From Clostridia bacterium (GTDB lineage Bacteria; Bacillota; Clostridia; UMGS1883; UMGS1540), in assembly GCA_045531205.1 (NCBI GenBank), contig JAZSDN010000050.1:6407-70406 (forward strand): DNA of 64,000 nucleotides, written 5' to 3'. Each line of letters begins with the position of its first letter. Within the stretch, counting starts at the first letter, position 1. Made by a program: the position numbers and the translations under genes. Of this stretch, positions 40,263-52,086 are shown one piece after another. The notes under the pieces were generated by a model. It worked only from the letters and a program-made list of their open reading frames with translations, searched no databases and was not told where the DNA came from.

Positions 40263-41147
40263 TTAATAATTCATATATTTTTTCAACATATTCTTTTCAA
40301 AATTCAACAGATATTTTGCTTCTTCGTCAATTCTTTTTTCCGAAATGGAATCAATTAAATTGCGGTATACATGTATATCCCTGCCTACTTCTCCTCCTTC
40401 CATAACAAACGGTTCTGAGACTATTCTACCTCTATAGTTTATATCGGCAAGAGCTTTAAATATCTCGTCCCAATCAAGATGTCCTCTTCCAGGTGCTGTA
40501 CGATTATTTTCACCTGTATGAAAACTTGTAAGTTTATCTCCCACAAGTCTTATTGCATCACCTATATTATTTTCTTCAATATTCATATGATATGTGTCAA
40601 GAAGCACACCAATATTTGGGCTATCTATTTCTTCTGTATACATAAGAGCTTCTGCTGCAGTGTTAATAAGACAAGTTTCAAAACGGTTAACAGCTTCAAC
40701 ACAGTATGTAACTCCATTATCTTCGGCAGTTTTGATAATTTCTTTCATACTTTTAATGCTTTGTTCCCAATATGGACGTTTATCCCCCTGATAATTATCT
40801 GGAGTCCCCCATCCTGCATAGCTTACACCAGACAGTAATGTGCCATTCATAAACCCTATTCTTTCAACTATTCTTTTTAAATAATCAACTCCGCCAAGTC
40901 TTATTTTTTCATTCAGAGAGGATACATCATAATTTCTGTCAAGGCCAAGGCTGTATGTTAGTTCAATATTATATTCTTCGGCTAACTTAACTAAATCTTT
41001 CATGTGTTCTTTACTCATTTCAAGCAAAGGTTGTGCCTGAAATTCAAGAACATCAAACCCTATCTCGGATGCCTTTTTTATATATTTTTTATGGTCAGCA
41101 TCCCAGTTTTTCTCCCAAAAATTCATAAAAATACCAAACTTATTCAT
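40263..41147 (-). CDS. Ketose 3-epimerase (D-psicose/D-tagatose 3-epimerase family, xylose-isomerase-like TIM barrel)
   Basis: 294 aa. Strong resemblance to DPEase along the whole length: ...FEFQ/EIAA, VEAVNRFET-LINTA, LDTYHMNIEE, HTGENNR-PG-G. Confidence 0.75.
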   Translation of the reverse strand: MNKFGIFMNFWEKNWDADHKKYIKKASEIGFDVLEFQAQPLLEMSKEHMKDLVKLAEEYNIELTYSLGLDRNYDVSSLNEKIRLGGVDYLKRIVERIGFMNGTLLSGVSYAGWGTPDNYQGDKRPYWEQSIKSMKEIIKTAEDNGVTYCVEAVNRFETCLINTAAEALMYTEEIDSPNIGVLLDTYHMNIEENNIGDAIRLVGDKLTSFHTGENNRTAPGRGHLDWDEIFKALADINYRGRIVSEPFVMEGGEVGRDIHVYRNLIDSISEKRIDEEAKYLLNFEKNMLKKYMNY

Positions 41148-41163
41148 TTTATCTTACTCCTTA

Positions 41164-42564
41164 TTATAAAACATCTATATCGTATCCAAGATATTTCACA
41201 AGCGCTTCCTTCACACATTCTGACCATTCTCCTTTTGCAATGGCAACATGGTGTTTGTATCCGTTTTCGCACATATACTTAAATACATTTTTAAGATTAT
41301 CTTTTTCAAAAACAATACCTGTTCCAAAAAACTCTTTGTCAAACTTATCTTCTGTCAATGTGCCATTAGTTGTAAATCCATAAAGTTTTCCATTTTCGGT
41401 TTTAATGCTTGCAACTGTAACCTTTCCTGATTTTATTTTTCCGTTAAGAATTCCAACTCCGGTTCCTTCTCCGTAAGATTTTTTAAACATAAGATGTTCA
41501 TTTATAAAAGTATCATTTTCAAAGAATGAATTTGGAACTGCCGAGCAATGAAACATAATGACTTTATTTTCTTCATTTCCGTAATTATTGTTTACATCCA
41601 AAAGCATAACAGGATGATTTGAGGCTAAAGTTAACGCATACATCATAACAGCATTGTTAACATCAAGTTCACATGCGGCAGGTATTCCTTTTTCATTCAT
41701 ATCACTCAAAATAAGACAAGGTGCTATATTATACTGTGTAACAAATTCGTCCCAGCATCTTACTGCCATAGCATCAAGAGAATAGTCCTTAACCAATTTA
41801 TCTACTGCTACACCAAGCTTTGCAATATTTGTAAGCTTTTCTTCAGAATAACTTCCAAAAGATGTAACAGAAGAATAATATCTTTTTTTCTCATCTAATT
41901 CGGTTTTGTCAACTCTTTCCATTAAATCAAATATATACGATAAATCTATTGATTCAACATTTATATTTTTGTTTTGCAATGCCACTTCATCTGTACGTAC
42001 AGTTTTAAAAGCAGTTGTTCTAGCTCCTAACGTTCCAATGTTAACATTTCTCATTCCTTTAACAATTCTGCATATTGCAGCAAAGTTTTTTAAGTCTTTT
42101 GCAAAAGCTTCATCAAGAGGTGAAACTGCCATTTTTTCTGTTAAAGTGAATTTAATATTGCATTGACGCAAAAGATTACACATAGCAAATTTTCCGCACA
42201 CAGCATCTCTTCTTTGTGAAAAATCCATCTTCCCTATTTCGTCAGGATATGCTTGAACTAAAATTGGTACACTTACATTTTTAAATGCTTCTGCCGCACC
42301 ATTTTCATCCGAAAAGTTCGGCATACATAAAATTATACCGTCAAACCTTCCCTTGTTATTTTCTAAAAAATCTTTGAACAAACGTCCTTCTTCTCTTGTT
42401 TCTACCGCACCGTATCTTGTTAAATTTTTATCCATACAAATATAACTAAAACCATTATCGACTACAGCTTTTATCATTTCTTCTCTGGCTTTCGCTATAA
42501 CTTCTCCTGGAAAAAAACCTCTGTTTCCAAAAAATAATGCGAATGTAATTTCTATTTTCCTCAA
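41164..42564 (-). CDS. L-fucose/L-arabinose isomerase-family sugar isomerase
   Basis: 466 aa. Fold and size as in the FucI/AraA-like family. Upstream of the epimerase in the same operon. Confidence 0.5.
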   Translation of the reverse strand: MRKIEITFALFFGNRGFFPGEVIAKAREEMIKAVVDNGFSYICMDKNLTRYGAVETREEGRLFKDFLENNKGRFDGIILCMPNFSDENGAAEAFKNVSVPILVQAYPDEIGKMDFSQRRDAVCGKFAMCNLLRQCNIKFTLTEKMAVSPLDEAFAKDLKNFAAICRIVKGMRNVNIGTLGARTTAFKTVRTDEVALQNKNINVESIDLSYIFDLMERVDKTELDEKKRYYSSVTSFGSYSEEKLTNIAKLGVAVDKLVKDYSLDAMAVRCWDEFVTQYNIAPCLILSDMNEKGIPAACELDVNNAVMMYALTLASNHPVMLLDVNNNYGNEENKVIMFHCSAVPNSFFENDTFINEHLMFKKSYGEGTGVGILNGKIKSGKVTVASIKTENGKLYGFTTNGTLTEDKFDKEFFGTGIVFEKDNLKNVFKYMCENGYKHHVAIAKGEWSECVKEALVKYLGYDIDVL

Positions 42565-42707
42565 ATTTCTCCCTCCTTTTTATATATCTTACATTGCCTT
42601 TTTCACTATTTATAGTGACTTTCTTGTTAAAAATAAGCACTATCTTACTTTTTTATTTTGCTAATATTGATTTTATTTGTTTTATTGTGTTAATATAAAA
42701 ACAAGGA

Positions 42708-43565
42708 GTGATATATATGATCTATAGTTTTGATAAAATAAAACTGCATAATATGTTTAAAGATTTTTACACTCTTTTAAAAATAACAATAAGTATTTGG
42801 GACTCGGATTTTAATCAGTTACTTTTTTATCCAAATCCCATGCCTTCAATATGTGCAAAAATAAAATCGTCGCCAACAGGCAAACAAAAATGTCTGGAAT
42901 CTGATATAAACGCCTGCAAAAAAGCTGCTTTAATAAAAAAACCTTATACCTTTACATGTCATGCAGGTCTTGTTGATACTGCTTTTCCGATTTATTATAA
43001 CGACGAAATAATTGCCTACATTATGTTTGGACAACTGCGCGATGTAGAAAATAAATTATCTACCATAGAAAATGTAAAAATTTTATGTAAGAAATATGGT
43101 TTAGATGAAAAAAGTATAGATAAATATTATAATGATTTACCGTTGCTTAATCATAATCAAATAAATGCCATTATACATCTATTTGAAATGTGTATTCCTT
43201 ATTTTTACACAAGTGAAGCGATAAAATTTGAAGAAAATATGCTTGCTTCAGAAATAGATAACTATATATCGCAAAACCTTTCTTCCTCTTTATCTCTTGA
43301 ACAATTAACTAAAAAATTTATGATTTCGACAAACGAATTATATCAGATATCACACAAATTTTTTGGCACTTCAATAAAAGACTATATAATTCAAAAAAGA
43401 ATTATCAAAGCGAAACACTATCTTGCAACAACTAATTTACCTGTTTCTGAAATAAGTATTAAAATTGGATATAATGATTACAACTATTTTATCCGCACCT
43501 TTAAAAATCGAACAGGGTACACTCCGCTTTCATACAGAAAAAATTTTCCGCTTAACACTTTGTAA
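42708..43565 (+). CDS. AraC-family transcriptional regulator with N-terminal PocR sensory domain
   Basis: 285 aa. PocR-like N-terminus (…TFTCHAGLVDTAFPIYYNDEIIAYIMFGQ) plus a C-terminal AraC HTH. Divergent from the isomerase/epimerase operon. Confidence 0.8.
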   Translation: MIYMIYSFDKIKLHNMFKDFYTLLKITISIWDSDFNQLLFYPNPMPSICAKIKSSPTGKQKCLESDINACKKAALIKKPYTFTCHAGLVDTAFPIYYNDEIIAYIMFGQLRDVENKLSTIENVKILCKKYGLDEKSIDKYYNDLPLLNHNQINAIIHLFEMCIPYFYTSEAIKFEENMLASEIDNYISQNLSSSLSLEQLTKKFMISTNELYQISHKFFGTSIKDYIIQKRIIKAKHYLATTNLPVSEISIKIGYNDYNYFIRTFKNRTGYTPLSYRKNFPLNTL

Positions 43566-43664
43566 AACATATAAAAACTCACCTATATTTTGTAGGTGAG
43601 TTTTTAATCTTTATACATAATAACATTTTATCTTACTTTTCTATATATGTAATAAGACAACAGG

Positions 43665-44573
43665 TTAAACAAAATAGCAGCTTATATTGCATTTTTCATT
43701 AAGTATTGAACAGATTTTTTTCATTTCGCCATCTGTTTGTGAGCTGTCTGCGAATTTCGTGTATTCTTTTCCTGCAATCTTATATTTTGACTCAGCAAGA
43801 TTGTTGTATTTTAATAATTCAATCTCTTTTATTCCTTTTCCGAAGGTTTTTATGATTTCAGCAAAGGCATAAATATCATCATCAGAATCATTCACTCCGG
43901 GTATTACAGGAATTCGTAAAATGATATTACTGTGTTTGTTTGATAATTTAGTGATATTTTCGATTATCAGTCTGTTGTCCTGCCCTGTAAATTTGCGATG
44001 TTTTTCGGAATTTGGAATTTTCAAATCAGCAAAGAACAAGTCTACAAAGGGTAACACCTCTTCAACCTTTTCCCAAGGAACGAAAAAAGCACTTTCAATT
44101 GCTGTGTGAATCCCATGTTCTTTACACATTCTTGTAACTTCTGCCACAAAGTCTGAATACAACAAACACTCTCCGCCCGAAAAGGTTACTCCTCCGCCTG
44201 AGGAAATATAATAGTGAGCGTCTTTTTTAATTTCTTCAAAAAGTTCCGGAGCAGTCTTTTCCTCACCACACAGGCTAAGTGCAAGCGAAGGACAGCTTAC
44301 CGCGCATTTGCCGCAAGCTGCGCAACCTTCGCGCAGAAAAGCCATATCATTTCCCAGTATTTTATGATGTTGTGGACAAAGCTCAATACATTTACCGCAA
44401 TGAATACATTTTGTAGGTATGTAAAGAATTTGCTTTTTTGAAGACAATGTTTCCGGATTATGACACCATTTGCATCTAAGGGCGCATCCTTTGAAATATA
44501 CAACTGTTCTGACGCCCGGTCCATCATGCAAAGAACCTCTTGATATATTTGTAATTGTTGCACTTACAGACAT
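43665..44573 (-). CDS. Glycyl-radical enzyme activating protein (radical SAM, PflA family, with extra ferredoxin-like Cys clusters)
   Basis: 302 aa: ...GPGVRTVVYFKGCALRCKWCHNPE (CxxxCxxC). Additional CxxCxxC clusters. 10-nt overlap with the upstream GRE gene. Confidence 0.85.
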   Translation of the reverse strand: MSVSATITNISRGSLHDGPGVRTVVYFKGCALRCKWCHNPETLSSKKQILYIPTKCIHCGKCIELCPQHHKILGNDMAFLREGCAACGKCAVSCPSLALSLCGEEKTAPELFEEIKKDAHYYISSGGGVTFSGGECLLYSDFVAEVTRMCKEHGIHTAIESAFFVPWEKVEEVLPFVDLFFADLKIPNSEKHRKFTGQDNRLIIENITKLSNKHSNIILRIPVIPGVNDSDDDIYAFAEIIKTFGKGIKEIELLKYNNLAESKYKIAGKEYTKFADSSQTDGEMKKICSILNEKCNISCYFV

Positions 44574-47200
44574 GAATGCTTTGTCCTTCCGATAATATGA
44601 TTCTGAAGTTCAGGAGAAAGCAGGTTAAATTTTTGACTGAATCCAGAAACTCTTACTGCAAGGTTATTATATTTTTCCGGATATTTTTGTGCATCAATAA
44701 GAGTGTCTGCATCAATGGTATTAAACTGTACATTTTCCAGACCTTTTTCGCTGCTTGCAATTAAAATATCCGCAAGCATGGGTATATTTTTGTCAGTAAA
44801 CAATTTTGGATCAACTTCAACAATTGCCGAAGTTGTACCCGGAGTGCGTTTGGTTGGCAGTTTAGCAATTGAGTTAAGCAAAGCTGTTAAGCCGTTAAAA
44901 TCACGTCCCTGCATTGGAGAAACACTATAAGCTATAATTTCGCCTTTGCGTCTTCCGTCAGGAGTTGCGGCACTTTCTCGTCCGTAGTCAACCATCCAAA
45001 GGAATGTAAATGGTTGTGCATGGAATGAAAGTCCGTATTTTTCAGACAATTCTTCAAGATAATCGCAAGCAGTATTTACTATATCAACCGCAATTGAGTC
45101 TACACTTTCAATATCATTACCAAATTTTGCAGCTTTATTTATAAATTCAAGCCTTATACTTTCATCCGGAAAATTGTTAACTAATATATCTTTTAATTCT
45201 TCAAGTGTATATTTTTGTTGTATGTACACAAATTCACGAATAACCTCAAGTGAGTCGGCAAGGTTTGGTATTCCGCCAAGCATAATTTGGTAATAATCAT
45301 ACTTCGCTCCTGCATCATTAAAGTCTTTTCCTGTTTCAATACAACCGTCTGTCAGTAACGACTTGTAAGGTCTTGGGCTGTTGATAACAGAACAATCCCT
45401 GTGTTTTTTTACAGAAGAACAGGTCAAATCAAGAATATGATAAATTTGTTTTTTGACCGAATCATAAAACTTGTTATAGGTGTCAAACGAATTAAGCTCA
45501 CCGGTTTTTACACCTGTGTTAAAATCAGGATACATCATACTGCTGCCGTTACATAGCACATACTCAACTGCTTTAAGCAAATTGGTTTCTCCTGTTACGG
45601 CATGAGGATTGGATTTTCCCGGTATAACAGTTTCAACACATCCAATTTGAGTGTAGTCGCAGGCATCCTCATAAGATATTCCTTTGCTTGTAAGTGCAGG
45701 AATCATTACATCATCATTAAAGAAGAACGGAACACCTTTCTGGACATGACCTACCACCTCAAGGGCACGTTTTATAAATTCCTTTTCCGTATTTTTTGAG
45801 TAACGCACTGACATGCAACGTATAAAATCAAGCTGTTCGGTAGCATCGAGCATCATATAAGAAAGTTCATTGACCTGACTGCTTCCATCGGGAGAAGTCC
45901 CGCCGACACACGACTGCTGAACATCGTAATTTAAGTATAGTTTAATCCACAAGCAGCATATCAGTTCAAAAGCATCTTCTTTTGTCAAAATGCCTTTTTC
46001 AATATCCGCTTTGTAATATGGATAAAGTATCTGATCAAGTCTGCCGAGTGAATTTGCGTTTATATGGTCCTCCCATGTGTTGATGATATGCGCAAACCAT
46101 AAAGACTGTACTGCTTCTCTGAAGTTTGAAGCAGGATTTTCGGGAACATTTTCACACGCACTTATAATATAATCCAAATCCTTTTCAAGATAAAGTTCGT
46201 CACCAGATTCTTTAATTCTTTGAGCTTCTTTTGCATATTTTTTGCCCATTTCACAAGCTGCTACGCAAATACTTTTCATTGAAGAATAAAGCGGATTTGT
46301 TCCGTTTTTCTTTTCGTGCGCTATAACTTCGTCAAGCAGGCCTTTAAACCCAAGCTTCAATACTTTTTCATAGTTTATTACACTGTGATTAGAGTCGGTA
46401 CATCTTCCTATTGCAGCCCATTCTCCGCACGAATCCTGCTCGTCTTTTGTAAGAATCGGCGATACATATTCAAGAAAATTAGGCTCTTGTTTAGTCAGCT
46501 CAAAGTATTTTTCCAAATCGCTATCACTGATACCATTTAATTTGGCTAACCTGCGATTTTCTTCCGTGTCATCAGGTGAAAACCATTCATCGTATTTAGA
46601 GTCAGGAAAATTAAAACCAACAATTAGTTCTCCAGGAATAATTACAGGAGTAAATTTATCTAAAACATTAATAGCTCTTGCCGCGCTGATTTCTGTATTC
46701 GAAAGATTCTTTTTTGCTGCTTCAGCCATCCCAATATAAGAGTAAACTTTATTTTGCATACAATAATAATCTTCATAGTCGTTTGTGCCAACAACTAAGC
46801 GACGCAAAGCTTCACATCTGTCAGTCAGAGAATACATAGTAATTCTTTTCCTTTCATAATAAAATTGAGTTTCTTTTGCTTGCTTTTTATATTCTCTGGG
46901 CAAGCAACCGAATTCTGCCAAAAAGGCTTTGTTGAACCCGCCTAACGTTTCATATCCATAAGCTATTGCTACATCGGTTATTTTTTTGCCAGAGATTATA
47001 TCAATTGCAGCCAATTGGAGACGGTAATGTCGAACATATTTTACAAAAGACTTTCCGGTATATTTATGAAATTTCGAGCAAAAATGCCATTTAGAATACC
47101 CAAACTGATTTGCAACATCTGATAGGTCTAAACGCTTCTCGATATTATTATGAATATACTTTAAAACTTCATACACAACACCATCTCCTTTCATTTTCAT
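44564..47200 (-). CDS. Fusion protein: N-terminal AraC/SoxS-type HTH domain (about 105 aa) + PFL-like glycyl radical enzyme of the single-Cys dehydratase/lyase type
   Basis: 878-aa continuous ORF. Residues about 9-105 form a complete two-helix-turn-helix AraC domain. From about residue 122 a GRE begins, with Cys loop TQIGCVETV and C-terminal glycyl motif AVRVSGFSQKF. An internal SD (AAAGGAAAAG) lies 8 nt before the in-frame ATG at 46835-46837. Confidence 0.8.
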   Translation of the reverse strand: MKMKGDGVVYEVLKYIHNNIEKRLDLSDVANQFGYSKWHFCSKFHKYTGKSFVKYVRHYRLQLAAIDIISGKKITDVAIAYGYETLGGFNKAFLAEFGCLPREYKKQAKETQFYYERKRITMYSLTDRCEALRRLVVGTNDYEDYYCMQNKVYSYIGMAEAAKKNLSNTEISAARAINVLDKFTPVIIPGELIVGFNFPDSKYDEWFSPDDTEENRRLAKLNGISDSDLEKYFELTKQEPNFLEYVSPILTKDEQDSCGEWAAIGRCTDSNHSVINYEKVLKLGFKGLLDEVIAHEKKNGTNPLYSSMKSICVAACEMGKKYAKEAQRIKESGDELYLEKDLDYIISACENVPENPASNFREAVQSLWFAHIINTWEDHINANSLGRLDQILYPYYKADIEKGILTKEDAFELICCLWIKLYLNYDVQQSCVGGTSPDGSSQVNELSYMMLDATEQLDFIRCMSVRYSKNTEKEFIKRALEVVGHVQKGVPFFFNDDVMIPALTSKGISYEDACDYTQIGCVETVIPGKSNPHAVTGETNLLKAVEYVLCNGSSMMYPDFNTGVKTGELNSFDTYNKFYDSVKKQIYHILDLTCSSVKKHRDCSVINSPRPYKSLLTDGCIETGKDFNDAGAKYDYYQIMLGGIPNLADSLEVIREFVYIQQKYTLEELKDILVNNFPDESIRLEFINKAAKFGNDIESVDSIAVDIVNTACDYLEELSEKYGLSFHAQPFTFLWMVDYGRESAATPDGRRKGEIIAYSVSPMQGRDFNGLTALLNSIAKLPTKRTPGTTSAIVEVDPKLFTDKNIPMLADILIASSEKGLENVQFNTIDADTLIDAQKYPEKYNNLAVRVSGFSQKFNLLSPELQNHIIGRTKHSCL

Positions 47201-47258
47201 TATAGCAAAACCTAAATAATATTTCTACTCCAAAATTGTGTTTTTCAAAATGTTAAAA

Positions 47259-47286
47259 ATGCTCGCCTGAAACAACAGACGAGCAT
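47259..47286 (-). terminator. Terminator hairpin retained with the spoIVB-like gene fragment
   Basis: ATGCTCG(47259-47265)-loop-CGAGCAT(47280-47286), flanked by A/T runs. It parallels the hairpin at 51081-51109 with compensatory stem changes. Confidence 0.5.
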
Positions 47287-47445
47287 TCATCTTAATTTTT
47301 CTCTGATTCTGCTAACATATTTTCAATAAATATTCCATACCCACGCGTGGGATCGTTTACGAATACGTGAGTGACTGCACCGATGAGCTTGCTATTTTGG
47401 ACAATGGGGCTGCCCGATAGGTGTGATGTCAATATGGGACAACAA
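47287..47445 (-). pseudogene. Remnant of the 3' end of a spoIVB-like S55 peptidase gene (duplication scar)
   Basis: Minus-strand translation gives ...[42 protein letters not shown]. Compare ...[43 protein letters not shown] at the C-terminus of the intact gene 51115..52086. DNA identity is about 75-80 % over about 150 bp. There is no start codon, and the fragment is truncated where activase 2 ends. Confidence 0.65.
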
Positions 47446-47448
47446 ATT

Positions 47449-48282
47449 CTACGCTTTTTTAACTAATATATTTGTTTTTGCTCTGATATAATTAATTATT
47501 TCATTAATCTGTTCATCAGTTTGCATTGAAATTTCAAGCGGTTGTTTTCCTAATGCCAAGTACTTATTTTCGCCAAAAGCGTGATAAGGCTCTATTTCAA
47601 TCCCTATGATTGATGTAAGTGTATTTGCAAGTTCGCATATTTTGTCATAGTTTTCTTTTCTGTCATTATAGCCGGGAATTACAGGACAACGGAGAATAAT
47701 ATCTTTTTTTAACTCATTTAATAAATATAAGTTTTTCTTTATTAAAATATTGTCCACTCCTGTATAGGTCTTATGTAATTCAGGATTACTTTCCTTGAAA
47801 TCAAACAAAAACAAATCGGTGTATTCTGCAATTTGTTTTATTTTATCGCTATCGGCAAAGCCACAGGTTTCTATAGCAGTGTGCAGGTCATTTTCTTTAG
47901 CTTTTTTTAAAATGTCCAATGCAAACTCAAACTGAAACAACGGCTCACCACCCGAAAGTGTAATTCCGCCACCGGAATTTTTATAAAATTCATAGTCTTT
48001 CATAACTTCGTCAATAACATAATCTGACAATACTGTTTTTCCGCAGATTTCCTTCGCATTATTAAAACATATAAAATCCGAATTGTCAGCTGTTAAGTTT
48101 CGACATCTTCCACAGCCCGAACATTTATCCGGATAAAACATGATTTGTTTTTCTTGCGTCTGACTTTCAGGATTATGACACCATTCACAACGCAAAGGAC
48201 AGCCTTTGAAAAAAACAGTTGTGCGTATTCCCGGACCATCATTAACACAAAATTTTTGAATGTTAAATATTTCACCGGTCAT
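47449..48282 (-). CDS. Glycyl-radical enzyme activating protein 2 (radical SAM)
   Basis: 277 aa: ...[25 protein letters not shown]. Paralog of 43665..44573. Confidence 0.85.
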
Positions 48283-48284
48283 TT

Positions 48285-50234
48285 TTATTTCTCCTGCACT
48301 GCTCGTTCAATTACAGCGTCCTGAATTTTTTCATTCAATGTTGTAAACTGTGTACTGTAACCACTGATTTTAACAATAATATCCGTGTGTTCTGACGGAT
48401 TTTGTTTGGCTTCTTCTAACAATTTTGCATCTATAGTATTAACAGCAAGATGAAAACCGCCGGCTTCAAAAAATGTCTTTATTAGAGGTGTAAGTACACT
48501 GCTTTTTTCAATATCTTTTTTATTCAAACTTATCATAACAGGGCATCCGTTGGGAAAATATTTGGCAGAGATATTTGCGCATGACATCAGAGTTGATGTT
48601 AAGGTGCTTTTGTGAGGCGTTGCGCAAGGCATCACTCCGTAGGATAACAGTTCTCCTTTTTTTCTTCCGTTAACCATTCCGCTACAATCCCGCTGCCATA
48701 TATCCGCAGTAAAACGAAACAGTGCCGGCGAAGAAAGAACATTATCATCTATAGGATATTTTTGAATTACTTTTCCTATAAACTCGGTTATATCTTTAGC
48801 TAACTGATTACTTTCTTCGCTGTTGGAACCGTAATAAGTTTTTAAGCCTGCTATTTTATTATATAAAGATACATCCTCAAAATCTTTTTCTGCCTGCATC
48901 CTTAGATTTTTAATTGTTGTATGATTTTCGTCAAATACAAGCCTTTTTATAGTGTAAATACTGTCAATTAAAATGCCGATTCCCAAGATATTTATGCCAA
49001 ACAGGTATTTTTCCCGGTTTAATACACAGTTTGCAAATGGTGATACTGCGTTTCTATCTTGATTTGCAATACTCTTAAATTCAGGAAGTAAAGAGTTTGC
49101 ATAATAAAATTCAAAATAATTTTTGTATGCATTAAGAAAGTCTTTGAAAGAAGAATAATCAGACTTTTGCTCCAAAAACTCTTTGAAGGAATCATATAGG
49201 TTAACGGCTGCGGCAACTGTGTTTGAAAACGAGCCTTGGGGAGCTGGTTCGTAACAGCCAACAATTCCGTAATCCATTGCTCTCTTATCATCAATTCCCA
49301 ATTTTTTTAAACCTTCAATAATAGTATCATCATTGAAATATGCCGGCATACCGCTTCCGTTTAAAACCAGCCGAGTTGCTTTATTTAAAACATCGGTACT
49401 TGTTATTTTTGATACTCTCAGGGCAATGGATGGCTGGCGCATACTGATTTGTGTTTGAGCTTCAATAAATAACGATGTCAATTCATTTTCAATATCTCCA
49501 CCCACGGTCAGCATGCACGACTCATCACCCTCGGAATTTTTTATGTAAAAGCACATAATAAGTTCTAACGCTTCTTCCGGCGTAAGAATACCTTTTTCGA
49601 TATCATTTTTATAATATGGATACAGGTATGAATCTGCTCTGCCTAAAGATATTGCAGCGCCGCCCGCTTCTGTATATAAAAAGCATTGAATAAACCATAC
49701 AAGCTGTAACGCCTGACGAAAACTCACAGGAGGGTTTTCCGATATGAATTCACAGTCATTTGCGATGTTTAAAAGTCTTTCTTTATCTTCATTCTGCGAT
49801 AAAACATAAGCTTTTCTTGCAGTGTCAGCATAATTTTTTATGTAATTTGAAAAAGCCTTTAACGTATTTACCAAAGCTGTTTTATTAGAGTTTTTATTGA
49901 CTTCATTTATTTTCCCTTTAATTCCTTTTTCCAAGAAATCCTGAAAATCTGCAATGAAGTGCCCTCTATTCTGAGGTTTTACAGTTTCGCCAAGAGACCT
50001 TTGCCATTGCCAATGCCAGTTTGTTCCTACAATGTATTCCTTTTCATAAATTTCGGTTGAAAAGTTTTCTGAAAAATACTGATAGAAACCACTGTATAAA
50101 AGCCCTTTATCTTCTTCAACGTTTTTGTTTGAAATATATTGCTGATAAAGATTACATAAATGCTTTTTGTGTTGCTCTCTTTTTTCTTCAAACATAGCAA
50201 GGTGCTGTTTTTTTAAAAAAATTGTGTTATTCAT
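48285..50234 (-). CDS. Short PFL-like glycyl radical enzyme 2 (paralog of GRE1) with atypical glycyl motif
   Basis: Start refined to the ATG at 50232-50234 (GGAAAGGAG SD upstream; ATGAATAA overlap with the IclR stop). 649 aa. Cys loop GIVGCYEPAP. C-terminal IVKISGYSTQF replaces the usual RVSG(Y/F). The block LYPYYKNDIEKGILTPEEALELI matches LYPYYKADIEKGILTKEDAFELI in GRE1. Confidence 0.75.
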   Translation of the reverse strand: MNNTIFLKKQHLAMFEEKREQHKKHLCNLYQQYISNKNVEEDKGLLYSGFYQYFSENFSTEIYEKEYIVGTNWHWQWQRSLGETVKPQNRGHFIADFQDFLEKGIKGKINEVNKNSNKTALVNTLKAFSNYIKNYADTARKAYVLSQNEDKERLLNIANDCEFISENPPVSFRQALQLVWFIQCFLYTEAGGAAISLGRADSYLYPYYKNDIEKGILTPEEALELIMCFYIKNSEGDESCMLTVGGDIENELTSLFIEAQTQISMRQPSIALRVSKITSTDVLNKATRLVLNGSGMPAYFNDDTIIEGLKKLGIDDKRAMDYGIVGCYEPAPQGSFSNTVAAAVNLYDSFKEFLEQKSDYSSFKDFLNAYKNYFEFYYANSLLPEFKSIANQDRNAVSPFANCVLNREKYLFGINILGIGILIDSIYTIKRLVFDENHTTIKNLRMQAEKDFEDVSLYNKIAGLKTYYGSNSEESNQLAKDITEFIGKVIQKYPIDDNVLSSPALFRFTADIWQRDCSGMVNGRKKGELLSYGVMPCATPHKSTLTSTLMSCANISAKYFPNGCPVMISLNKKDIEKSSVLTPLIKTFFEAGGFHLAVNTIDAKLLEEAKQNPSEHTDIIVKISGYSTQFTTLNEKIQDAVIERAVQEK

Positions 50235-51018
50235 AAATAACAAACTCCTTTCCACAATACCCTAAATTTGCCGAGATTTCAGCGGAAGCATTTCTTATTA
50301 GATCAAGTTTTTCATTAATTAAAGAGTCAATATCGTCATATAGCGTCAGGCTTGAAACACCTATAGTTGCCACCACATTTCCTGTATAGTCAAAAATAGG
50401 TACTGCAATACAAATTATGCCTTTGGCAAACTCTTCATTATCAATAGCAAAACCTGCTTTTTTTATCTTATAAGCTTCAATAATAAAACTATCAAAATCC
50501 GTAATGGTATTTTCTGTTCTTTTGTCAACCGGTATATTAAAGTAATTCTTTATCTCATCTGTATCTGAATAACTTAAAAGAATCTTACCGGGGGCAGAAC
50601 AGTTAAGTGGGTATTCTCCACCTATACACCCATTAATTCTGACTTCCTTTGTGGAATCATAATGCAAAAGATAAAGGACGTTTCTTTCGTTTTTAACCCC
50701 AAGATAGACAGAATCACCAAGCTCATTATTTAACTGTTCTATGTAAGGAGTTGCAATTTTTGCAATGCTGTTATTATTAACATAACCTGATATAAGTGAA
50801 AAGGGACGGAGCGTTAATCTGTATTTTTTTTGAGTATTATCACTCATATAAATCCAATTTTTCTCGAGCAAAGCTTCCAACACCCTTGAAACAGCATTTT
50901 TATTTATATTAAGAGCATTACTTATATCAGCAATTCCTATTTCAGAATTTTTACTTGCAAAAAATTCAATTATTTCCAAAGCGTAATCTACAGCAGGAGC
51001 TTTAGACAACTTTATCAC
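50227..51018 (-). CDS. IclR-family transcriptional regulator
   Basis: About 260 aa. N-terminal HTH (VDYALEIIEFFASKNSEIGIADISNALNINKNAVSRVLEAL) plus a C-terminal IclR ligand-binding domain. GTG/TTG start near 51007-51018. Translationally coupled to GRE2. Confidence 0.8.
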   Translation of the reverse strand: MIKLSKAPAVDYALEIIEFFASKNSEIGIADISNALNINKNAVSRVLEALLEKNWIYMSDNTQKKYRLTLRPFSLISGYVNNNSIAKIATPYIEQLNNELGDSVYLGVKNERNVLYLLHYDSTKEVRINGCIGGEYPLNCSAPGKILLSYSDTDEIKNYFNIPVDKRTENTITDFDSFIIEAYKIKKAGFAIDNEEFAKGIICIAVPIFDYTGNVVATIGVSSLTLYDDIDSLINEKLDLIRNASAEISANLGYCGKEFVIYE

Positions 51019-51114: not shown

Positions 51115-52086
51115 TTATTTGTTTTTCTCTGCTTCAGTTAACATATTCTCTATAAATATCCCATAACCTCTTGTTGGATCATTCACAAATACGTGTGTCA
51201 CAGCTCCGATGAGCTTTCCGTTCTGAACTAAAGGTGACCCCGACATACCTTGGACAATTCCACCCGTTATCGAAAGAAGTTTTGGGTCTGTAACTTTTAT
51301 TATCATATTTTTATTTTCTTCATAATTTTTATTTAAAATCTTTTCAATTAAAACTGTATATTTTTGTACACCTTCTCCTAAAACATCCGCATATATAAAA
51401 GCATTTCCTTCCTTCACTTCGTCTGATGTTGAAGTAAAAACAGTTTCTCCTTCACTTTTTTTAAGCAGTGTTCCGAATAATCCGCTTTTTGAATTTTTGT
51501 TTATTATGCCACTTTTAACATTTAAAAAATCCCCTTGCAAACCACCGGGGCTCCCCTCTTTCCCTCTTATTACATACATATTTTCACAAAAACGTATATC
51601 GCCCGAATTTCCTGAAGGCATTATGCCTGTTTCTGTATCTTCTACCTTGTGCCCTAACGCAGCAAATTTTAAGGTTTCGGGTTCGATATAAGTTATAGTT
51701 CCTATCCCGGCTATACTGTCTCTTACCCATGCGCCTATTTTATATTTATAAGCATCGTCATAAAATACAGGTGTAACCTTTTTGGTTAAAATTTTATTTT
51801 CTCTCTTTATTCCTAAATTAAGATTTTTTCCTTCTGACTGTTCAACAAGCTTGCTGAATTCATCACTCTTTGATATCTTTTTGCCGTTTACTAAATAAAT
51901 TATATCTCCCTTTTTAATTCCTGATGCCTTGGCAGGAGATATATTTTTTCCATTTGAAACTATATCAGAAAATCCAACCACCAATACACCTTCAAAATAC
52001 ATGGATATTCCTATGGTGTTTCCTCCTAATATTACTTGTTTTGGTTCGCTCTCTTCTGTTGCTTCAATATTGTTTTGGCCGCACAA
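51115..52086 (-). CDS. SpoIVB-like serine peptidase (S55 family, PDZ domain + peptidase)
   Basis: PDZ-like region (GIKKGDIIYLVNGKKISKSDEF) and the S55 catalytic region ...[26 protein letters not shown]. The reading frame stays open upstream to about 52156, encoding a signal-peptide-like KKSVNLLKIFFALLLTVTLLSLLCGQ with no in-frame ATG. The true start is probably non-canonical or hidden by a sequencing artefact. Confidence 0.75.
   Translation of the reverse strand: MCGQNNIEATEESEPKQVILGGNTIGISMYFEGVLVVGFSDIVSNGKNISPAKASGIKKGDIIYLVNGKKISKSDEFSKLVEQSEGKNLNLGIKRENKILTKKVTPVFYDDAYKYKIGAWVRDSIAGIGTITYIEPETLKFAALGHKVEDTETGIMPSGNSGDIRFCENMYVIRGKEGSPGGLQGDFLNVKSGIINKNSKSGLFGTLLKKSEGETVFTSTSDEVKEGNAFIYADVLGEGVQKYTVLIEKILNKNYEENKNMIIKVTDPKLLSITGGIVQGMSGSPLVQNGKLIGAVTHVFVNDPTRGYGIFIENMLTEAEKNK

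Follow-up and report, generated by a model that had tools for sequence, protein, structure and literature searches.

The stretch of DNA analyzed here, hereafter the window, comprises 64,000 nucleotides (nt) from a Clostridia bacterium (GenBank assembly GCA_045531205.1, contig JAZSDN010000050.1, positions 6,407 to 70,406 of the forward strand). On its minus strand, at 44564-47200, lies an open reading frame (ORF) of 878 amino acids (aa) in which a helix-turn-helix (HTH) DNA-binding domain is joined to a glycyl radical enzyme (GRE). We refer to the gene and its relatives as HTH-GRE and consider here how the fused protein might act on its own promoter. A preliminary description of the locus had reported a complete AraC-type double HTH fused in frame to a full GRE with its Cys loop and the glycyl motif RVSGF. 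Both the ORF, which is free of any stop codon or frameshift between the two parts, and Pfam searches confirm this account. The features of the protein-coding part are as follows.

46880..47155, minus strand: AraC/XylS-type double HTH of the MarA/SoxS/Rob kind (residues 16-107), from Pfam, structure matches, invariant helices, and an AlphaFold2 (AF2) model
44564..46834, minus strand: GRE body, from Pfam PFL-like and Gly_radical matches, AF2 and Foldseek, and invariant catalytic residues
45632-45640, minus strand: Cys loop (C521/E523), within the GRE body
44642-44644, minus strand: radical glycine (G853), within the GRE body

With the 878-aa ORF as the query, Pfam assigns residues 16-56 to HTH_AraC (E value, 3.5e-8), residues 30-107 to HTH_18 (5e-19), residues 158-737 to PFL-like (2e-123), and residues 759-859 to Gly_radical (8e-22). 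Against solved structures, residues 6-112 match RamA, Rob, SoxS, and MarA (E values of 3e-14 to 2e-10), and the remainder of the protein after the first ~110 residues matches GRE eliminases (E value of ~1e-90). In the AF2 model, the HTH part consists of seven helices with predicted local distance difference test (pLDDT) scores of 83-92, and the full model (pLDDT of 86.5; predicted template modeling score [pTM] of 0.86) contains the GRE barrel. The linker (residues 100-113 in the numbering of the 870-aa protein introduced below) is modeled as helical, with a pLDDT of ~80, and not as disordered. The recognition helices of the HTH, FGYSKW and GFNKAF, are invariant or nearly so across homologs.

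The catalytic elements of the GRE, the Cys loop QIGCVE (C521 and E523) and the glycyl motif RVSGF (G853), are intact. C521, E523, and G853 are invariant in alignments of 20 to 73 homologs (73 sequences for the RVSGF glycine), and the invariant Cys-x-Glu arrangement (C521-V-E523) is the hallmark of the 1,2-eliminase (dehydratase/lyase) class of GREs. When the AF2 model was compared with known structures by Foldseek, the best matches were 1,2-propanediol dehydratase, glycerol dehydratase, and HypD (E values of 7e-44 to 3e-42; template modeling scores of 0.73-0.83). Every NCBIfam equivalog cutoff was nevertheless missed by a wide margin (e.g., TIGR01774, 401.7 versus a cutoff of 678.2). In the alignment to glycerol dehydratase 1r8w, in which we take H164, H281, S282, and D447 to be the diol-binding residues, H164 corresponds to H272 and is kept, H281/S282 correspond to N381/A382, and D447 corresponds to V535. 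Of the diol-binding residues of the B12-independent glycerol/1,2-propanediol dehydratase, only the equivalent of H164 is therefore present. The homologs share invariant motifs of their own (NTWEDxINANSLGRLDQ and NPHAVTGE). These comparisons point to an enzyme of the 1,2-eliminase/dehydratase class with an active-site signature of its own. Identity in the HTH rises and falls with identity in the GRE from locus to locus, and both halves of the fusion are under purifying selection, with the catalytic and recognition-helix residues kept.

The 5' end of the gene carries the following signals.

47174..47176, minus strand: start codon GTG (codon 9 of the 878-aa ORF), giving an 870-aa long isoform, from homolog N termini and the Shine-Dalgarno (SD) sequence
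47185..47191, minus strand: SD sequence AAAGGAG of the long isoform, 8 nt before the GTG
47199..47207, minus strand: extended -10 element TGcTATAAT, from a promoter scan

Homologs are mostly 870 aa long and begin MYEVLKYIH at the position of the GTG (47176-47174). The energy of the duplex between the SD sequence and the anti-SD sequence is -13.4 kcal/mol for the GTG, -9.6 kcal/mol for the internal M122 discussed below, and -3.6 kcal/mol for the ATG at 47200, which has no SD sequence and lies inside the -10 box. Codon 9, a GTG with AAAGGAG 8 nt upstream, had already been suggested as the start, and the N termini of the homologs agree. From this comparison, we conclude that the protein begins at the GTG at 47176 and not at the ATG at 47200. 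The promoter scan returned TAGAAA-17 nt-TATAAT with an upstream TG (10 of 12 matches). A TATAAT-like box lies ~19-27 nt ahead of the start codon in nearly all orthologous loci, and the leader is therefore very short. The TG of the extended -10 element is present in 35 of 54 loci. The long isoform starts with GTG or TTG in 18 of the 54, which is compatible with lower translation of this isoform.

A second potential start lies at the boundary between the two domains.

46835..46837, minus strand: internal in-frame ATG (M122), predicted from its conservation to start a 757-aa HTH-less GRE isoform
46849..46855, minus strand: internal SD sequence GAAAGGA in the linker codons E116-R117-K118, a 7-bp match to the anti-SD sequence

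Both elements are present as the preliminary description had it, and its suggestion that fused and unfused enzymes are both made finds strong comparative support. M122 is invariant in a 20-sequence alignment and is encoded by ATG in almost all of 59 orthologs. Its SD sequence is the strongest among all in-frame ATGs of the window gene and is conserved as GAAAGGAG in most of the 59 orthologs, where the codons typically read tat-GAA-AGG-AGa, followed by three more codons and then the ATG. The mean anti-SD duplex energy upstream of M122 in these orthologs is -11.1 kcal/mol, compared to -1.9 kcal/mol at 1024 other in-frame ATGs, of which 0.1% reach the median of the M122 set. AGG accounts for 11% of Arg codons elsewhere, but most codons at positions -5 and -4 before M122 are AGG. 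Amino acid constraint is insufficient as an explanation, because the synonymous choice of AGG persists across lineages that share 51-60% protein identity, and the internal SD sequence is thus under selection at the nucleotide level. Four HTH-less orthologs (L043, L045, L050, and L071) start exactly at the M122 ATG, with an ordinary SD sequence.

The main rival to the isoform claim is that only the full-length protein is made, the internal SD sequence and ATG being either a relic of an ancestral, separate GRE gene or a translational pause site where the two domains meet. The linker does resemble a read-through 5' leader, free-standing GREs start at M122, and distant fused clades have no Met at this position. 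Moreover, the helical linker of the AF2 model leaves room for YYERRK to be constrained at the protein level. However, protein constraint explains neither the rare AGG choice nor the mean duplex energy maintained across the divergence given above, and the synonymous sites of a relic that served no purpose would have decayed. We consider a relic or pause site possible but unlikely.

Upstream of the gene, a candidate operator overlaps the promoter.

47222..47241, minus strand: candidate operator ACACAATTTTGGAGTAGAAA (core RCAAnnTTGGAGT; consensus tcRCAAttTTGGAGTaGaaa), 27.6 bits by position weight matrix (PWM)

The motif was discovered in 61 upstream regions anchored on their -10 boxes, with no other supervision. 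The anchored alignment shows the block c[GA]CAAnnTTGGAGTaGaaa, with up to 1.5 bits per column, ending in the -35 hexamer. The window copy is the sole match to the motif in the 64 kb, and its last 6 nt are the -35 hexamer TAGAAA. The PWM was used to scan 1.15 Mb of loci (2.1 million positions) with a threshold of at least 18 bits. A site on the coding strand, mostly 62-70 nt before the start codon, was found in 52 of 58 fused loci, a count that is circular in part, as these sites also served to train the matrix. In contrast, none of the 17 truly HTH-less orthologous loci carries a site (maximum, 13.1 bits), and there are five hits elsewhere in the 2.1 million positions. Four of these each stand before a co-directional gene that immediately precedes an HTH-GRE, and the fifth marks the promoter of a frameshifted fused gene (L074). 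The contrast with the unfused loci and the background rate are not circular.

The spacing of the motif is nearly fixed. Of 54 loci, 42 have exactly 17 nt between the end of the 20-mer and the -10 hexamer, and 50 have 16-18 nt. If transcription starts ~7 nt after the -10 box, the site is centered ~41 nt upstream of the start. A center near -41 is the geometry of class II activators, including MarA and SoxS at class II promoters. The motif is asymmetric, spans ~16-20 bp, and has two conserved blocks, GCAA and GGAGT, whose centers lie approximately one helical turn apart. Such a two-block asymmetric site is expected for a single monomer with two HTHs, and the near-invariant recognition helices fit a fixed DNA target. 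We infer that the HTH binds its own upstream motif. Autoregulation, as raised in the preliminary description, is thus supported by the conserved operator-like motif in the 47201-47258 region, which occurs strictly together with the HTH.

Only one fused locus has no recognizable operator anywhere in its contig (L028:4768-4968; best score, 2.5 bits). The same locus carries W38C in helix 3, at an otherwise nearly invariant Trp, and a K-to-R change in helix 6. The joint loss of the operator and the helix-3 Trp is suggestive of co-degeneration. Covariation between the helices and the operator was considered and set aside. One clade (TAGAGT with helix 3 FIR) and L028 provide suggestive cases, but phylogeny confounds them. 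Separately, extra operator copies of 19.8-27.8 bits (L034:6447, L039:1439, L077:843, and L062:7350) lie ahead of genes that adjoin the HTH-GRE on its upstream side and run in the same direction. The products, lipoproteins of 492 and 565 aa and a membrane-anchored protein of 162 aa, have no Pfam match, and the genes are possible members of a regulon. The copies at L034, L039, and L062 were rejected as a clue to function, their targets having no Pfam match. In metagenome contigs scanned with the 18-mer operator consensus, none of the 94 matches adjoins an HTH-GRE, and no added regulon members are indicated.

We propose that HTH-GRE is a self-regulating trigger enzyme, with monomeric HTH binding near -41, class II autoactivation, and production of a long and a short isoform, and we hold this reading with moderate confidence. 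The HTH of the 870-aa long isoform would bind the upstream motif as a monomer, next to the -35 hexamer, and the bound protein would activate its own HTH-GRE/activase operon in class II geometry. The GRE body would stand in for the ligand-binding domain of AraC or Rob, in a Rob-like one-component layout, and the substrate or the state of the enzyme would probably tune the activity of the regulator. Ribosomes would also initiate at M122, yielding an enzyme-only isoform that adds no DNA-binding domains, and a single mRNA would thereby give bulk catalyst and a DNA-binding species in a set ratio. Since GREs are dimers, the long and short forms may mix in the same dimer. A more detailed version of this scheme is speculative and, in our view, rather unlikely. 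It holds that substrate occupancy or the glycyl radical (activated, oxygen-sensitive) state decides whether the DNA-binding domain is freed, so that transcription of the enzyme and activase is coupled to catalytic or redox status. The isoform ratio and the mixed dimers would then set the gain, and eroded distant relatives would be enzymes turning into pure regulators.

Several observations weigh against the proposal. The extended -10 element (TGnTATAAT) could run without an activator and fits repression as well as activation. The fairly confidently modeled helical linker and the pTM of the full model may mean that the HTH packs against the enzyme. Nor is the internal start universal, as the distant fused proteins P0148 and P0152 have no Met at the domain boundary. 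Among 581 neighboring ORFs from 79 loci, there is no conserved transporter or pathway gene, and therefore no substrate, and hence no effector, can be proposed. In addition to the partial circularity of the operator counts, the loci are phylogenetically related, and locus counts are not independent events; the neighbor-joining (NJ) tree of the GRE bodies, considered below, is weakly resolved.

Because of the extended -10 element, repression at the same site is the main rival to our view of the regulation. HTH-GRE would then be an autorepressor that occludes the -35 hexamer, with which the site overlaps, and that is released by the substrate or by the activation state, as in PutA. Many of the promoters, those with the upstream TG, may need no activator, and the bifunctional proteins PutA, BirA, and NadR are generally known to act as repressors. 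Stand-alone domains of the MarA/SoxS/Rob type and most members of the AraC family, in contrast, are generally activators. The strict 17-nt register to the -10 hexamer and the center near -41 also suit class II activation, whereas occlusion tolerates variable spacing. We regard autorepression as an alternative of low probability.

It is still less probable that the motif is a plain promoter element or is bound by another factor, with the HTH acting elsewhere or not on DNA. The 3' part of the motif does coincide with the -35 hexamer. However, the motif is missing from all 17 HTH-less orthologous loci, although these hold members of the same gene family in comparable organisms. A two-HTH monomer would suit the bipartite, asymmetric layout of the motif (GCAA, 4 nt, GGAGT), and the lack of variation in the recognition helices is what a fixed target would require.

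Under the autoactivation proposal, the regulated unit would consist of HTH-GRE and the activase gene, which are bounded by the following features.

43665..44573, minus strand: GRE-activating radical S-adenosylmethionine enzyme (TIGR02494), whose start overlaps the GRE stop by 10 nt
43572..43606, both strands: bidirectional terminator-like hairpin of 14-16 pairs, from a terminator scan, closing the two-gene operon
47258..47287, minus strand: terminator-like hairpin with a U-run (-22.4 kcal/mol; z score, -6.6; 0 of 200 shuffles as stable)

The activase scores 336.9 bits against TIGR02494 (cutoff, 174). It lies directly downstream of the GRE in 54 loci, and it is the sole conserved neighbor in the clustering of the neighboring ORFs. 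The hairpin at 47258..47287 lies between an upstream unit of a short GRE and its activase and the HTH-GRE promoter. As read from these signals, the transcription unit is HTH-GRE plus the activase, an autonomous two-gene cassette, because a terminator hairpin precedes the promoter and the bidirectional terminator follows the activase. One fused gene of 67% identity (P0107; L005:10001-12616) has no activase or other GRE-related gene within 10 kb.

It is very improbable that the GRE part is an idle sensor, that is, a pseudoenzyme, and the protein solely a one-component regulator. Some fused loci, such as L005, have no adjacent activase, distant fused relatives have eroded glycyl radical regions, and P0153 has no Cys-loop Glu. 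Within the clade, however, the Gly, Cys, and Glu and many barrel residues are invariant, and the activase is translationally coupled in the 54 loci. The enzyme evidently has a value of its own, because lineages that have lost the HTH retain the GRE and activase.

Other genes surround the cassette. Upstream, on the minus strand (47449-51018), a second GRE (48285-50255) is unusually short at 656 aa, without ~130 N-terminal residues. It has the Cys loop VGCYEP and the Gly motif KISGYS and scores below all NCBIfam cutoffs. It has its own activase (47449-48282), and an IclR-type regulator (50227-51018) overlaps its start. A comparable shorter GRE (657 or 705 aa) with its own activase precedes the HTH-GRE in L002 and L004. 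A gene for an SpoIVB peptidase (51115-52086, minus strand) or a 47-aa fragment of it adjoins GRE cassettes in several related genomes, including at L004:9744-9887 and L036:6410-7486, and may mark a recurrent insertion site. Downstream, a PocR-sensor/AraC regulator (42708-43565, plus strand) is convergent with the activase and shares the terminator at 43572-43606. It is followed by a fucose-isomerase-like gene (41164-42564) and a D-psicose 3-epimerase gene (40263-41147; 382.7 bits in NCBIfam, cutoff 300). This neighborhood of regulator, isomerase-like gene, and epimerase (40263-43606) is not conserved in other loci. The sugar-related genes were accordingly rejected as a guide to the substrate, as they are not conserved partners.

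The fusion is widespread. Among the best 120 homolog clusters, 118 (65-92% identity, independent assemblies) combine an HTH_18 match with GRE domains, again mostly in 870 aa, and in the other two, of 800 and 757 aa, the N terminus is shorter. Approximately 60 GTDB species genomes encode the HTH and GRE in one frame, at 51-93% identity. The carriers are Oscillospiraceae, Christensenellales-like, and other Clostridia metagenome-assembled genomes, mostly from the guts of ruminants, chickens, and humans. An exhaustive profile search added full-length relatives of 875-880 aa at 38-41% identity (P0148, P0150, P0152, and P0153), in which Pfam confirmed HTH_18 and PFL-like. The database check that the preliminary description had called for therefore shows abundant fused orthologs and homologous loci that are not uniformly split. 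Its alternative of a very recent stop-codon loss does not hold, as the fusion spans 38-93% identity. A sequencing or assembly artifact, or such a recent loss, can be dismissed, given that the single-frame fusion recurs in independent assemblies of ~60 species, down to 38% identity, and that the loci with a stand-alone HTH have decayed, their GRE being fragmented or deleted. By comparison across these genomes, the fusion is old and single-frame and is no assembly error.

Free-standing SoxS-like mini-regulators were sought with the HTH and linker alone, and the short matches proved to be contig-end fragments or decayed loci (L001-L003). Two separate genes as a living arrangement were rejected on the same grounds, the GRE of the stand-alone HTH cases being deleted or broken. 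In the NJ tree of GRE bodies, the HTH-less forms are scattered among the fused forms, and for this reason the fusion looks ancestral to the clade, with the HTH lost repeatedly, roughly at least eight times as counted from this weakly resolved tree. Stronger evidence for loss than the tree comes from the HTH-less loci L044, L058, L059, and L069, which retain remnants of the linker (YYERRK) or an out-of-frame HTH. Each loss of the HTH appears to have left a working GRE gene.

Some cassettes are themselves decaying (L001, L002/L003, L036, L059, and L074). Decay takes the form of a large internal deletion that has brought the HTH up against the Gly-radical tail, of a GRE broken into 3-4 ORFs, of frameshifts, or of an HTH remnant that is out of frame. 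Among the distant relatives, P0148 and P0153 (38-40% identity) have no Pfam Gly_radical match at an E value of <1e-4 and have a deletion of 6-13 residues immediately before the glycine loop. The Cys loop of P0153 is GCSG, without the catalytic Glu. Both proteins may have given up catalysis and become regulators of enzymatic origin.

Gut anaerobes count GREs among their most abundant enzymes, and the family has been mined intensely for new chemistry. The full-text literature yielded no account of a GRE that carries a DNA-binding domain, in a search whose coverage leaves out most subscription journals, and the database names of the homologs are automatic ("helix-turn-helix domain-containing" or "PFL family"). 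The combination of a DNA-binding domain on a GRE with an internal start is thus apparently undescribed for these enzymes. We also know of no trigger enzyme that pairs such a fusion with a conserved internal start for an enzyme-only isoform. The system is compact, with a promoter, one operator, one enzyme-regulator, and one activase. It could reveal the route by which the state of a large radical enzyme reaches transcription and the way in which a single mRNA is divided between regulator and catalyst. An inducer of the promoter would point to the substrate of the enzyme, and the cassette may serve as a portable inducible module for anaerobes. Taken together, the fused forms, those that have repeatedly lost the HTH, and those with an eroded radical region illustrate enzymes becoming regulators.

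Among known regulators, Rob, MarA, SoxS, and RamA of the Enterobacteria have a double-HTH domain of the same kind. Rob in particular shares the layout of an N-terminal HTH and a large C-terminal domain able to sense a ligand, and the asymmetric ~20-bp sites of class II marbox promoters, by or over the -35 hexamer, are like the candidate operator described here. However, the C-terminal partner in HTH-GRE is a 757-aa radical enzyme and not a GyrI-like binding domain as in Rob. The motif RCAAnnTTGGAGT also differs from the marbox consensus, the apparent target is the protein's own operon and not a stress regulon as for MarA, SoxS, and Rob, and the hosts are Clostridia. GRE eliminases (glycerol and propanediol dehydratases, HypD, CutC, IslA, HpsG, PflD/YbiW, and N-methyl-hydroxyproline dehydratases) have the fold, the Cys-x-Glu, the glycyl motif, and the activase in common with HTH-GRE. 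Identity to the characterized eliminases is 24-29% in structural alignments, and these, unlike HTH-GRE, have no DNA-binding domain.

In functional terms, HTH-GRE may be likened to PutA, BirA, NadR, the archaeal RbkR, and Ada (with an AraC-type HTH), in which catalytic and DNA-binding domains share one polypeptide and control genes of their own pathway. None of these is a GRE, and they are mostly repressors with ribbon-helix-helix or winged-helix domains. The trigger-enzyme concept and the RbkR example have been described previously (PMC5397151), as has the theme of enzymes evolving into regulators (PMC3602430). With respect to translation, ClpB, CheA, and IF2 are each made as two isoforms through an in-frame internal start with an SD sequence at a domain boundary, as we propose for HTH-GRE. 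The isoforms of HTH-GRE, as predicted here from comparison of orthologs, would differ from those of ClpB, CheA, and IF2 in being set apart by a whole DNA-binding domain.

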